From NCBI GenBank assembly GCA_964016885.1, contig OZ024751.1, positions 4,960,001-5,024,000 of the forward strand: 64,000 nt of DNA. The letters are read 5' to 3'. How positions within the stretch are numbered: the stretch's first letter is position 1; every line of letters starts with the position of its first letter. The DNA is from Eledone cirrhosa (taxonomy: Eukaryota). The position numbers and the translations under genes were made by a program. The notes under the pieces were generated by a model. It was not told the DNA's origin and did no database searches. It saw only the letters and a list, made by a program, of their open reading frames with translations. This document shows, one piece after another, positions 34,560 to 64,000 of this stretch.

Positions 34560-35292
34560 AATAAATGTAATCTGTGTTTTTCGAATATTAATAATAATAT
34601 TCGATTCTTTTTCAATTATGCACACAAGCCTCATTTTTAAAGCCATGTCATTTTTGCTCTTATGTTGGCATGTGTTTATGTATATTTATATATATATGTA
34701 TATGACATGGCTTCGAAAATGAGGCTTGTTTGCATAATTGCAAACAAATCGAATATTATTATTAATATTCGAAAAACTCAGATTACATTTATTGTATTCA
34801 ACCATGTAGAGCGAAAACATTTTTTTTATTTGACTGTGGCAAAGCCGGCCATTGATCGCTCGTATACAGGAAACTGACTGGCCAGTCTGCTGATATGCAA
34901 ATCTGGCTGATCAGTGGATCTGCTAATATGCAGATCTGACTGATCAGCCAGTCTGCTAATATGCAGATCTGACTGATCAGCCAGTCTGCTAATATGCAGA
35001 TCTGACTGATCAGTCACTGTATATTTTAGAAAATATATATTTTCACTAGCTGTGATATTTGGCAGGTGAACAGTGAGCTGTACTGATGCAGGGTAATATC
35101 CAGAAACATTAGTGTCTACAGTTCTGTTTACATGCCAACATAAGAGCAAGAATAAGGGGCTCATTCTACTGACATGGCTTTAAAAATGAGGCTTGTTTGC
35201 ATAATTGTAAACGAATCGAATATTATAATTAATATTCGAAAAACACAGATTACATTTATTGTATTCAGCCATGTAGAGCGAACATTTTTTTA
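34560..35292 (+). mobile_element. ~467-bp retrozyme-like unit (~1.25 copies) with inverted 5' arm (34560-34674), internal 33-bp minisatellite and variant HHR 35077-35122
   Basis: TGACATGGCTT at 34703 and 35170; GCTGTA CTGATGCA GGGTAATATCCa GAAA CATTAGTG TC^ TACAGT; upstream motifs align with the 487-bp family. Confidence 0.75.
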
Positions 35293-35321
35293 AAAATTAT
35301 ATATATATATATATATATGTA

Positions 35322-35915
35322 TATATCAACTAGAAATTGATTGACATATATATATATCTAAAATAAACATGAAACAATCACATTAGGTAACTAATTAAAG
35401 TTTAACTAGAACTTTAAATATAGATACCTTTTAAAATGAGTAATCTTCCTTGTATATATTTTATTAAAGAAATATATTTCACCATTCAATTGGTAAATCA
35501 CAGTAGTCAAATCACGGATTTTCAACAAGGGAGAAGATTTAACTATCTGTGTTTACACAGCAAATGCAAATCTGTGAATAACCCGTAGCACGTGTTGCAT
35601 TTTTCTTTAAATACACACATCTTACCAGCGTCATCCCAGTGGCGTGAATAGGATTATTCACGCTAGAAATAGCAGCCGAAACCTTTCAACTGAGTTAGCT
35701 CTACAATTAAGGGGCCGTATATATATCCAATATTAAATTAAGGGTGTCATATCCAAGAGACATGCATTTTATATCAACTAGAAATTGATTGACATATATA
35801 TATATCTATATAAAATAAAATATATATCTATATAAAATAAACATATGAAACAATCACAGGGAATAATTTGTAAAGTGTGCTTATACACTTTACAAATTAT
35901 TCCCTGTGATTGTTT
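35322..35915. repeat. ~448-bp partial tandem repeat ending in a hairpin (35848-35915)
   Basis: TATATCAACTAGAAATTGATTGAC at 35322 and 35770; AAACAATCACAGGGAATAATTTGTAAAGTGT inverted repeat. Confidence 0.7.
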
Positions 35916-36574
35916 ATATATATATATATATATTTATATATATATATATATATATATATATATATATATATATATATATATATATATATATATGTATATA
36001 TATATGTATATATATATGTATATTTATATATATATATGTATCATCATCATCATCATCTTCGTTTAACGTAGCATGGGTTAGACGGGAGTTGTCCCACTTG
36101 AGACAACGCTGGTCAGGTGACCGTGTCTCCCTCATATAGGACTATCTGACAGGTTTTCTACGGTTGGATGCCCTTCCTAACACCAACCACATTTACGGTG
36201 TGGAACTGGGAACTTTTTACCGTGTTACCTACACGGCCACATTACAGCGTGGACTGTGTGTGTTTTGTCGTGACACCGACACAAACTCGATCTCATTTTC
36301 TCGTTCTGTTGGTGGGAGTGGGAGGAAAGGGTAGGGGTAGTAGATTGGGGTCTATATTTGGTTAAGAGGTGCCTACTGACTGTAGGTTTCGCTTTGTACA
36401 TAGGCAAGGCGGGTCTTCTGTATTACTGCATAGCGCCAAAGATCTCGGTCCAGAGACATTGTATATATATGTATATATATATATATATGTATATTTATAT
36501 ATATATGTATATGTATGTATATATATATATATATATATGTATGTTTATATATATATATGTATATTTATATATAT

Positions 36575-60925: not shown

Positions 60926-60952
60926 AAAACCACAGACCCTCCATCTCAACTC

Positions 60953-60989
60953 TACTTTTGAAAAGCAGAACTGCGAAATCGGTAAAGGA
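60953..60989 (+). ncRNA. Minimal U3-A8 HHR in pLTR stub 60925-61127
   Basis: taCTT TTGAAAA GCA-GAAC-TGC GAAA TCGG TA^ AAGga. Confidence 0.65.
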
Positions 60990-61456
60990 ACCAAATAAAT
61001 ATATATATTTAAAAACAAATAAGACTCCAGTTGCATTTTCGATTTCATCTTTTTTTCTTTATAATTTCACTCGTGTAGGACACCTCGGTTATTTTTCATT
61101 TTGTAAAAAAAAAACCTCACTTTCTAATATATATATATATATATATATATATATATATATATATATATATATATATATATATATATATATAAGTATGCAT
61201 GTATACGTACATACATATATGTATACAGACGTACAGTAGCATGCACATATATATATATATATATACATATGCATACAGGTACACATACTGTACGTCTGTA
61301 TACATATATGTATGTACGTATACATGCATACTTACATTTAAGTAAGTGCCATACTAAGAGTGAGAAATGAAATTTCGTTTTCATTTTGTTTCAATTTATA
61401 TATATATATTATATATATATATATATATATATATATATATATATATATATATATAT

Positions 61457-64000
61457 ACAATTAAGTCAAAGATGTACATCCATATATGTATACTGAAATA
61501 CTAGTATGTATATGAATACACACACGTATACATATGTAGATGTACCAAGTTTTTTTCACTGATCACTTTACTGTGAGTGGCCAGCTATTCTGTATGTAAA
61601 CACACAGACAAACCGGTTTTTAGAGTCATACTGGTTTTTGAGGAAACACCTTTCCTCTATTCTCCAGAAAGCCAGACAAGGAATATTGAACTAGTTTCGT
61701 TGTTGTTACAACTCATCAGCAATATTTACCTATCTTCCGGCCTCTCTAGAGAATCGTAAAAGCACATATCGCTATATGCTTTTTCTATGAAAATTAGTAG
61801 TGGGCAGACAACTTGCATAGAGTGTGAGTAAGTACCGGTTCAACGGAGACGATAAAAACAAATAACGAAACGAAATTAAATTTCGTTTCGTTTGTAACTC
61901 ACTTTTGTATGACTGACGCTCAAACAATTAAGTCAAAGATGTACATCCATATATGTATACTGAAATACTAGTATGTATATGAATACACACACGTATACAT
62001 ATGTAGATGTACCAAGTTTTTTTTTCACTGATCACTTTACTGTGAGTGGCCAGCTATTCTGTATGTAAACACACAGACAAACCGGTTTTTAGAGTCATAC
62101 TGGTTTTTGAGGAAACACCTTTCCTCTATTCTCCAGAAAGCCAGACAAGGAATATTGAACTAGTTTCGTTGTTGTTACAACTCATCAGCAATATTTACCT
62201 ATCTTCCGGCCTCTCTAGAGAATCGTAAAAGCACATATCGCTATATGCTTTTTCTATGAAAATTAGTAGTGGGCAGACCAACTTGCATAGAGTGTGAGTA
62301 AGTACCGGTTCAACGGAGACGATAAAAACAAATAACGAAACGAAATTAAATTTCGTTTCGTTTGTAACTCACTTTTGTATGACTGACGCTCAAACAATTA
62401 AGTCAAAGATGTACATCCATATATGTATACTGAAATACTAGTATGTATATGAATACACACACGTATACATATGTAGATGTACCAAGTTTTTTTTCACTGA
62501 TCACTTTACTGTGAGTGGCCAGCTATTCTGTATGTAAACACACAGACAAACCGGTTTTTAGAGTCATATTGGTTTTTGAGGAAACACCTTTCCTCTATTC
62601 TCCAGAAAGCCAGACAAGGAATATTGAACTAGTTTCGTTGTTGTTACAACTCATCAGCAATATTTACCTATCTTCCGGCCTCTCTAGAGAATCGTAAAAG
62701 CACATATCGCTATGCAAGTTGGTCTGCCCACTACTAATTTTCATAGAAAAAGCATATAGCGATATGTGCTTTTACGATTCTCTAGAGAGGCCGGAAGATA
62801 GGTAAATATTGCTGATGAGTTGTAACAACAACGAAACTAGTTCAATATTCCTTGTCTGGCTTTCTGGAGAATAGAGGAAAGGTGTTTCCTCAAAAACCAG
62901 TATGACTCTAAAAACCGGTTTGTCTGTGTGTTTACATACAGAATAGCTGGCCACTCACAGTAAAGTGATCAGTGAAAAAAAAACTTGGTACATCTACATA
63001 TGTATACGTGTGTGTATTCATATACATACTAGTATTTCAGTATACATATATGGATGTACATCTTTGACTTAATTGTTTGAGCGTCAGTCATACAAAAGTG
63101 AGTTACAAACGAAACGAAATTTAATTTCGTTTCGTTATTTGTTTTTATCGTCTCCGTTGAACCGGTACTTACTCACACTCTATGCAAGTTGGTCTGCCCA
63201 CTACTAATTTTCATAGAAAAAGCATATAGCGATATGTGCTTTTACGATTCTCTAGAGTGGCCGGAAGATAGGTAAATATTGCTGATGAGTTGTAACAACA
63301 ACGAAACTAGTTCAATATTCCTTGTCTGGCTTTCTGGAGAATAGAGGAAAGGTGTTTCCTCAAAAACCAGTATGACTCTAAAAACCGGTTTGTCTGTGTG
63401 TTTACATACAGAATAGCTGGCCACTCACAGTAAAGTGATCAGTGAAAAAAAAACTTGGTACATCTACATATGTATACGTGTGTGTATTCATATACATACT
63501 AGTATTTCAGTATACATATATGGATGTACATCTTTGACTTAATTGTTTGAGCGTCAGTCATACAAAAGTGAGTTACAAACGAAACGAAATTTAATTTCGT
63601 TTCGTTATTTGTTTTTATCGTCTCCGTTGAACCGGTACTTACTCACACTCTATGCAAGTTGGTCTGCCCACTACTAATTTTCATAGAAAAAGCATATAGC
63701 GATATGTGCTTTTACGATTCTCTAGAGAGGCCGGAAGATAGGTAAATATTGCTGATGAGTTGTAACAACAACGAAACTAGTTCAATATTCCTTGTCTGGC
63801 TTTCTGAAGAATAGAGGAAAGGTGTTTCCTCAAAAACCAGTATGACTCTAAAAACCGGTTTGTCTGTGTGTTTACATACAGAATAGCTGGCCACTCACAG
63901 TAAAGTGATCAGTGAAAAAAAACTTGGTACATCTACATATGTATACGTGTGTGTATTCATATACATACTAGTATTTCAGTATACATATATGGATGTACAT
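61457..64000. mobile_element. 469-470 bp retrozyme-like tandem array in head-to-head inversion (junction ~62712); six HHRs: 61682-61726, 62151-62195, 62620-62664 (minus) and 62805-62849, 63275-63319, 63745-63789 (plus)
   Basis: AATATTG CTGATGA GTTGT-AACA-ACAAC GAAA CTAG TT^ CAATATT in every unit; units nearly identical; runs off the window end. Confidence 0.95.

Follow-up and report, generated by a model that had tools for sequence, protein, structure and literature searches.

Metazoan non-LTR retrozymes, as described in PMC7229834, are non-coding tandem repeats of low GC content with one type I hammerhead ribozyme per unit. Their monomers are strongly self-paired, they occur in thousands of copies, and Penelope-like elements are present in the same genome. 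The families reported here share all of these features. Newt satellite 2 is a hammerhead repeat for which Pol II transcription from an internal snRNA-type promoter has been reported (PMC2220036). Penelope-like elements insert as partial tandems accompanied by a truncated copy in inverted orientation; one end carries a tail, and the targets are microsatellites (PMC8557442). A link between retrozymes and these elements was drawn by Li et al., who could match 24 of their 57 Xenopus retrozyme families to known elements; of 22 matched, 21 were matched to Penelope-like elements, at the termini. Cleavage was reported for only one of nine predicted Xenopus elements (10.64898/2026.07.22.740005). The agents of retrozyme transcription and insertion are proposed in this literature and, in the texts cited, left open. 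The kind of element itself is not new; it is the published non-LTR retrozyme. Our literature search, with subscription journals, Repbase/Dfam and bioRxiv supplements outside its scope, found no paper on the families themselves.

We analysed a 64,000-nucleotide stretch of Eledone cirrhosa DNA, referred to as the window. The original prediction placed three diverged tandem families in it, at 34.7-35.3 kb (A, 467 bp), 36.9-38.0 kb (B, 487 bp) and 61.5-64.0 kb (C, 470 bp), and treated them as one superfamily of ribozyme retroelements with covarying stems. These locations and unit lengths were recovered (Table 1). So was the common order of hairpin, TATGCA box, TATA-like box, GG.AG.T and hammerhead, with the quoted stems present. 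In detail, the CAT of the TTTTCATA box is missing from A, and C reads GG.AG.TA. The tandem description applies to B and C. The A copy in the window has a single ribozyme and is therefore a partial tandem, and among the loci examined no family A locus has two tandem ribozymes. An inverted, 5'-truncated arm, overlooked in the first reading, is present at each of the three loci.

Table 1. Positions of repeat-family features and of a Penelope-like reading frame in the window.
Feature	Position	Strand	Details
Family A inverted, 5'-truncated arm	34556..34673	(-)	unit positions 48-182; adjoins (TA)n
Family A partial tandem	34703..35291	(+)	about 1.26 units (467 bp each); stops at unit position 211 on the 3' side, then AT-rich and (TA)n sequence
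Four 33-bp repeats, family A	34881..35013	(+)	an octamer-like box (34894, 34927, 34960, 34993) and a TCAG box in every repeat
Family A predicted promoter, TCAG box to TATA-like box	35008..35043	(+)	match to the proximal element of host Pol II snRNA genes
Family A type I hammerhead	35058..35138	(+)	extended, bulged stem I; core from 35083; predicted cut after 35116
Family B inverted arm	36576..36875	(-)	one hammerhead, core at 36866
Family B tandem	36884..38020	(+)	2.4 units of 487 bp; internal (TA)n tract; terminus just past AT-rich hairpin, then (TA)n
Family B predicted promoter: octamer box, TCAG, TATA block	37093..37143	(+)	second copy from 37580
Family B type I hammerhead	37160..37230	(+)	core 37182 (37669 in the second copy); U-U at stem II base; predicted cut after 37212
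Family B fragment	61203..61399	(+)	palindromic body and tail, without ribozyme; adjoins family C array
Family C inverted arm	61457..62713	(-)	2.7 units; cores 62657, 62188, 61719; stops at unit position 265, within (TA)n
Family C forward arm	62710..64000	(+)	470-bp units; cores 62812, 63282, 63752; runs beyond window (core 64220), ending at about unit position 337 in (TA)n
Family C predicted promoter: octamer-like box, CCAC, TATA-like block	63181..63232	(+)	
Family C type I hammerhead	63246..63342	(+)	extended stem I; predicted cut after 63312
Penelope-like RT and GIY-YIG reading frame	26108..27454	(-)	

The units have a GC content of 0.35-0.38, and their forward arrays contain no reading frame of 150 or more amino acids. 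A 182-aa frame overlaps the family B inverted arm and its flank. The monomers show a high degree of self-pairing (circular fold z -4.1 to -10.6, 40 shuffles; internal repeats inflate the values of A and B). Selection on a unit length near 470-490 nt, which had also been proposed, does not agree with the range of lengths: A units span 372-467 bp with one outlier of 599, B units 420-613, and those of a fourth relative 314-323. The 467 bp of the window's A copy is due to a fourth 33-bp repeat (11 of 18 complete A copies have three, one has four), and the 487 bp of B takes in a variable (TA)n tract. The values 467, 487 and 470 bp are local ones. In contigs from four sequencing runs of unknown type and low depth, C was present in all four and B in three, a result given no weight for expression or host range.

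Families B and C align over the full unit, including the part outside the ribozyme. The local score is 159, against a maximum of 65 in 500 dinucleotide shuffles, and 267 of 377 aligned columns are identical, which supports a common origin of the two. Family A is more distant. Its alignment with B is limited to about 115 nt before the ribozyme (score 50, shuffle maximum 44), and its body aligns collinearly with the B2 subfamily (score 48, reached in none of 300 shuffles). Alignment with C is not significant, as 455 of 500 shuffles score as high. A and its relatives share a 16-nt octamer-to-TCAG offset and a 7-bp stem with a 2-nt bulge, and A and B have GGCAG at the matching place. The single superfamily stands for B and C over the whole unit, with A linked solely via the B lineage; the case that A belongs to the clan, built on the upstream block, the layout and one body alignment, is the weaker one.

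A type I hammerhead, with a CUGANGA / GAAA / UH core, stems I-III and an open stem I, is found in C, B and most A copies. Standard hammerhead numbering and the names octamer, PSE and TATA are used here. Stem I continues beyond a 2-nt bulge as a long helix, which the first reading missed. The Rfam model HH9 scores 37.7 bits (E 6e-6) against the family C hammerhead, short of the gathering score of 52, and 18.6-19.8 bits (E 0.17-0.44) against that of B. Family A has no hammerhead match among those listed. Other Rfam matches over A and B (E up to 10) are mainly (TA)n-driven miRNA and were taken as chance. The core is unchanged between B and C, as had been claimed. In the window's A copy it is substituted (CTGATGC, A9 to C), whereas 31 of 34 A copies read CTGATGA. 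Across these 34 copies, 5 of 374 cells differ in the core and 88 of 1719 in the upstream block.

The ribozymes of B and C align without gaps over 53 columns, 16 of which differ. Fifteen of the differences lie in stems with pairing kept and one is the cleavage base, an uncommon U in C; none falls in the core, loops or bulge. At the 22 positions of the unpaired core, loops, bulge and stem III the two families agree throughout, and the remaining unit is 71% identical. We then compared 48 distinct rows of the B/C lineage, after removal of three of 51 (one unrelated, two truncated in stem I). Both sides change in 7 of 17 pairs, and one stem I pair samples G-U, U-G, U-A, C-G and A-U. The covariation score is 0.210, against 0.095 for shuffled rows (none of 500 reached it) and at most 0.067 for slid ones; the number of covarying pairs was equalled in 24 of 500 shuffles. 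This support depends on few independent lineages. The predicted stem covariation holds in the larger B/C sample. Because the A stems differ entirely and have no sequence in common with those of B and C, the GCTGTA/TACAGT stem demonstrates a hammerhead only and does not show paired change along a line of shared descent.

Copies of C, and likewise of B, that are nearly identical are dispersed over many contigs, and the 3' ends of all three families cluster. The 3' ends of C fall at unit positions 260-269 (10 of 18) or 335-339 (8 of 18), those of B at 300-304 (10 of 31) or 360-364 (11 of 31), and those of A at 200-219 (29 of 37). A (TA)n tract follows the 3' end in 16 of 18 C, 22 of 31 B and 21 of 37 A cases. 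Of 90 loci, 39 carry both strands, and each of these is joined 5' end to 5' end. Thirty of the 90 are overlapping C loci that make up 17 arrays. Three of the 17 have a private variant in all four units and one more has it in three of four, a pattern also compatible with local duplication; no such variant was seen across both arms of a C array. Young dispersed copies, preferred ends and inverted arms support the predicted retroelement behaviour over that of a plain satellite.

Penelope-like elements, as described in PMC8557442, have the same anatomy: a partial tandem joined to a 5'-truncated arm of opposite orientation, a single tailed end and a microsatellite as target. The window's own RT and GIY-YIG frame, a candidate partner, shows that such elements are present. 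Young RT and GIY-YIG copies occur at 93-97% identity, and many of them have open frames. One Penelope-like 3' end was compared with the tails of A, B, C and D and had no similarity to them (119-285 of 300 shuffles as high). From the layout, the families were probably copied by a Penelope-like reverse transcriptase.

Upstream of the ribozyme, the families share a block that resembles host promoters, combining a Pol III-type octamer with a Pol II snRNA TCAG/TATA arrangement. In the host, an octamer box lies at -76 to -78 with a TATA near -31 in 4 of 19 U6 loci, the one MRP locus and one of four U6atac loci (the best match). The box is absent from the other 15 U6 and three U6atac loci, most of which have altered 5' ends; we took these as putative pseudogenes. 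A TCAG-like box lies at -54 to -58 in 17 host U1/U2/U4/U5 promoters, kept after 13 near-duplicates were removed from 30. The elements' octamer matches the host U6, MRP and U6atac boxes over at least 12 nt, at a fixed distance from the TATA-like box. In a 1.4-Mb sample it precedes 25 of 36 A, B, C and D ribozymes and 1 of 87 others.

The two host promoter classes are each matched in part. Octamer and TATA-like box are 41-43 nt apart in the elements versus 46-48 in host Pol III genes, so the block matches neither class whole. The units also hold T runs of 5-8. For the Pol II snRNA type, defined by a TCAG box some 56 nt and a TATA-like box some 31 nt ahead of the start, a matrix finds its best site in the A unit at the predicted place (score 16.5, p=3e-6 per site). 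It also picks the predicted site in an octamer-less 310-bp family (p=9e-5), where the best match is -77 from the core, compared with -73/-76. At the predicted sites of B, C and D the matrix is not significant. The young and very active C has a degenerate version (an octamer with one change, CCAC, CATATA), and letters of the block double as parts of predicted hairpins. The idea that the predicted start always sits at the base of the extended stem I was dropped, as it fails for B2, where the start is 8 nt before the core.

We consider it likely that these families are non-autonomous non-LTR retrozymes of one clan, dispersed as tandem-plus-inverted insertions in (TA)n and probably copied by Penelope-like machinery. 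The octamer/TCAG/TATA block near the unit end would act as an snRNA-type promoter, with RNA starting about 8-19 nt before the core. RNA spanning two ribozymes is predicted to be cut to a monomer with the promoter sequence inside, which a host ligase would close into a circle. A Penelope-like RT/endonuclease may then nick (TA)n and start synthesis close to the AT-rich hairpin, where it would have two preferred priming sites to choose from. Copying round the template would leave a tandem arm, or two of them back to back, whose 5' ends are ragged, and any insertion longer than one unit would again place the promoter ahead of a full unit. A bolder version, which we hold only tentatively, is that the clan comprises tens of thousands of circular-RNA retroelements with their own hybrid promoter, the host Pol III octamer brought closer by half a helical turn on a scaffold of Pol II snRNA type, and that the two-armed insertions directly record how a Penelope-like RT, primed at two defined sites, copied its way round an RNA circle.

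One rival concerns the promoter. The same retrozymes could carry in this block an RNA structure or RT-binding signal and obtain their RNA by host read-through. The non-significant matrix in B, C and D, the spacing unlike host Pol III genes, the strong self-pairing of the monomers and the octamer box of D, which is one arm of an inverted repeat, all fit this reading. The long octamer match at fixed TATA distance, the matrix result for A, the near-equal core distance in the 310-bp family and the precedent described for newt satellite 2 (PMC2220036) speak against it, and we regard it as possible but doubtful. A separate origin of A, its likeness to B and C being convergent capture of a host snRNA promoter and a hammerhead, seems unlikely. 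The non-significant alignment with C and the wholly different stems, stem II length and loop 3 of A would suit it; the collinear alignment with B2, the 16-nt offset, the bulged 7-bp stem and the position of GGCAG would not.

The other two rivals concern how the units spread. They could be orphan pseudo-LTRs of full-length Penelope-like elements, inserted as truncated parts and not as independent circles. The insertion layout equals the Penelope-like one, and in 21 of the 22 matched Xenopus families of Li et al. the match is to Penelope-like elements, at their termini (10.64898/2026.07.22.740005). In the flanks listed, however, the arrays consist of unit repeats only and run out in (TA)n, and the tails bear no likeness to the one Penelope-like end compared; we find this reading improbable. 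We give very little credence to satellite DNA spread at the DNA level, with paired changes arising from hairpin repair and not catalytic selection. Long arrays do exist, one B2 array accounting for 15 of the 27 matches of its cluster, and the units are palindrome-rich. Yet the dispersal of the insertions, their preference for certain 3' ends, their ragged 5' ends and their inverted arms, and the invariant ribozyme positions between B and C in an otherwise diverged unit, point away from it.

For the retrozyme reading, the families offer two handles: on transcription, a promoter-like block for which snRNA genes of the same genome serve as a comparison, and on insertion, very young copies with defined ends. 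In the B/C lineage, which includes the U cleavage base of C, nature has also provided a clean series of compensatory hammerhead changes.

The closest known systems are non-LTR retrozymes and newt satellite 2. In the metazoan retrozymes of PMC7229834, expression, cleavage and circles are demonstrated; the present families are known from sequence alone. Units here are mostly longer (420-613 versus about 170-400 nt), and the inverted arms, the pair of preferred 3' ends, the (TA)n targets and the promoter block appear to go beyond that description. Family B, with a 2-bp stem III and U-U at the stem II base, resembles axolotl HHR_Amex2 (PMC7229834). The newt satellite 2 promoter was tested (PMC2220036), whereas ours is a sequence resemblance mixing host Pol III and Pol II features, and the likeness to satellite 2 is drawn from its description, not from a sequence comparison. 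Li, Clavereau and Pollet (2026) covered vertebrates, insects and a coral, arguing from co-occurrence and pLTR similarity (10.64898/2026.07.22.740005). Our basis is insertion anatomy, with no pLTR similarity to the one element tested. Compared with the Penelope-like elements of PMC8557442, the units here have no reading frame, the B and C tails are about 60-70 bp instead of 30-40 bp, and the hammerheads are canonical with an extended stem I, where those of Penelope-like elements are minimal.

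The units, stems and motif order described for the 467-bp (A), 487-bp (B) and 470-bp (C) tandem families are all present in the window, which lies in a 3.0-Gb animal assembly with abundant (TA)n. Matches to the Rfam hammerhead model HH9 number six in C (37.7 bits, E 6e-6; gathering score 52); those in B are weak (E 0.17 and 0.44), and A has none. We took out the ribozyme, collapsed (TA)n, aligned the families and compared scores with shuffles. The B-C alignment runs from one end of the unit to the other (159; highest shuffle score 65), the A-B alignment covers ~115 nt (50; highest shuffle score 44), and A and C show no significant alignment outside the ribozyme. 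When units were split into body and upstream block, z was 16.4 and 11.4 for B-C, 3.1 and 7.1 for A-B, and -0.1 and 1.1 for A-C. Against B2, a subfamily of B, the body of A reaches z 7.2, collinear and equally far from the ribozyme. On these scores B and C plainly belong to a single lineage, to which A probably belongs as a distant member; we consider common ancestry of A with both likely. The single superfamily proposed in the original prediction thus stands for B and C and is only probable for A.

The B and C ribozymes align ungapped over 53 columns. Of 16 differences, 15 fall in stems and one at the cleavage base, with none in the core, loops or bulge; six pairs are altered on both sides and one U-U becomes G-C. 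We collected 51 distinct variants (302 copies) and aligned 48, among which 7/17 pairs show both-sided change. Covariation is present in this larger sample: the score is 0.210, versus 0.095 in shuffles and no more than 0.067 when partners are slid. Because the aligned rows are related by descent, the fractions of shuffles scoring as high (0/500) or matching the number of covarying pairs (24/500) are not probabilities. A contributes nothing to the covariation, since its stems have no sequence in common with those of B or C. The window's A copy also carries a core substitution (31/34 A copies have the standard core). Stem I is predicted to run on into a long helix in 6/6 folded unit types (A, B, B2, C, D and the 310-bp family), and a reading by hand places a 2-nt bulge after the ~7-bp proximal stem in A, B and C.

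Every A, B and C locus in the window pairs a forward arm with an inverted one, the two meeting at their 5' ends. Among 90 loci, 39 are two-stranded, and the 5' ends meet in all 39. The three families have preferred 3' ends, mostly with (TA)n after them, lying 200-360 nt downstream of the ribozyme and away from the cut site. B and C have two 3'-end classes ~60-70 nt apart, either side of the AT-rich hairpin. The meeting 5' ends, preferred 3' ends and (TA)n argue for retroelements rather than satellite DNA, as predicted, and A, B and C are very likely retrozymes. Passages of PMC8557442 list such a layout of arms, ends and targets for Penelope-like elements. The window holds an RT+GIY-YIG frame with many genome copies 93-97% identical (94 scored), and this element has (TA)n at its end as well. 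Its 3' end, in the one element tested, shows no likeness to the A, B, C or D tails. Mobilisation of A, B and C by Penelope-like machinery is likely. In 3/17 C arrays every unit examined carries a private variant, as do 3/4 units of one further array, which fits copying round one template, and local duplication too.

The block upstream of the ribozyme was compared with small-RNA genes of the same genome. In host U6, U6atac and MRP genes an octamer box is found at -76 to -78 (4/19, 1/4 and 1/1 loci), with a TATA near -31. The U1, U2, U4 and U5 genes carry a TATA-like, AT-rich stretch near -31. Between -54 and -58 they carry a TCAG-like box, picked as the best match within a 10-nt range (17/17 used, 14 exact). 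Across these host loci (L091-L093, L106-L166, L338, L339), Pol III genes have little in common before the TATA beyond the octamer box around -77; common to Pol II snRNA genes are a TCAG around -56 and, near -89, an AATTAA box. In the elements, TCAG (A, B), CCAC (C) or TCAC (D) stands 16 nt after the octamer box, with a TATA-like box 25-27 nt beyond. Octamer-to-TATA spacing is 41-43, versus 46-48 in host Pol III genes. The octamer box precedes 25/36 sampled A-D ribozymes versus 1/87 others, and of 27 exact boxes in the sample, 18 stand ahead of a ribozyme core. A matrix from 17 host Pol II promoters ranks A's predicted site best in its unit (p=3e-6 per site) and matches the 310-bp family at -77, 77 nt before the core (p=9e-5); in B, C and D it does not pick the predicted site. 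Judged by sequence, the block is promoter-like, and we lean slightly towards a working promoter. Applied by hand, host spacing would start transcription 8-19 nt ahead of the core in A, B and B2. In C and D the start would lie somewhat more upstream, and the ribozyme would stay intact throughout. Elsewhere, at L104 and L207, sequence flanking a U6-like copy also occurs ahead of another hammerhead family, which suggests that U6 copies travelled with that element.

In the cycle we propose, the block would drive RNA, two ribozymes would cut it, a host ligase would close the monomer into a circle, and a Penelope-like enzyme would copy it, target-primed, at (TA)n. Tandem copying would rebuild the promoter sequence, since this is carried inside the monomer.

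Ribozyme-to-ribozyme spacing is 467-474 in C (29 distinct units), 420-613 in B (47/49; two at 842-847 cover two units each), 372-467 in A plus one at 599, and 314-323 in D (n=3). A 33-bp repeat in A and the (TA)n tract in B are the source of variation. These spacings do not support selection for 470-490 nt, and on length the original prediction is wrong; it holds on the B-C relation and retroelement nature, and probably on A. In 140 evenly spaced 10-kb stretches we found 123 hammerhead-like motifs (3 in shuffles). Rough copy numbers are ~6,000 for A (3 matches), ~64,000 for B (30 matches in 17 stretches; a single long array inflates this figure), ~11,000 for C (5) and ~13,000 for D (6). The best copies are 99-100% identical in C and B and ~90-94% in A and D.

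D turned up in the random genome sample and carries the upstream block common to A-C; its octamer box belongs to an inverted repeat. Among the sampled clusters the largest (27 matches, 21 stretches) is of the long-stem-II, YRYR-loop-3 type, without the octamer box. A young Penelope-like family bears a hammerhead-like motif that escapes standard descriptors; most of the 38 listed matches have a core starting CAGA rather than CUGA.

Locations of further features (L-numbers are sequence loci; other positions are in the window)
Feature	Location	Strand	Description
Family D	L205, L318-L337		314-323 bp; octamer / TCAC / TATA / ribozyme order; inverted arms frequent
310-bp family	L227 (G000:C3:190.0 Mb)		tandem hammerhead, 11 copies, no octamer box
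C subfamily	L130:1-615		further compensatory stem II change; C at cleavage base; adjoins assembly gap, directly before U1 gene array
Long-stem-II hammerheads	4178, 29496, 32361, 34270, 57978, 58157		YRYR-type loop 3; several as inverted pairs near Penelope-like frame fragments
CAGA-core Penelope-like element	24821-27454	-	motif near 24940-24985; copies near 6900, 40015, 57300
Broken non-LTR retrotransposon	40936-42558	-	RT-bearing; 75% identical to next; PHD-like domain after RT in one of the two
Broken non-LTR retrotransposon	52386-54542	+	RT-bearing
Minisatellite	49048-49784		47 bp, ~15 copies

We found no description of A, B or C in the literature searched. They are a real feature of a known kind, non-LTR retrozymes, with new members. 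Passages of PMC7229834 describe such retrozymes in coral, mussel and axolotl, name Penelope-like elements as the likely mobiliser, and report axolotl and mussel monomers circularised by host ligase in vitro. Newt satellite 2 is reported to have an snRNA-type promoter, as cited in PMC2220036. A 2026 preprint (bioRxiv 10.64898/2026.07.22.740005) argues that non-LTR retrozymes derive from Penelope-like elements.
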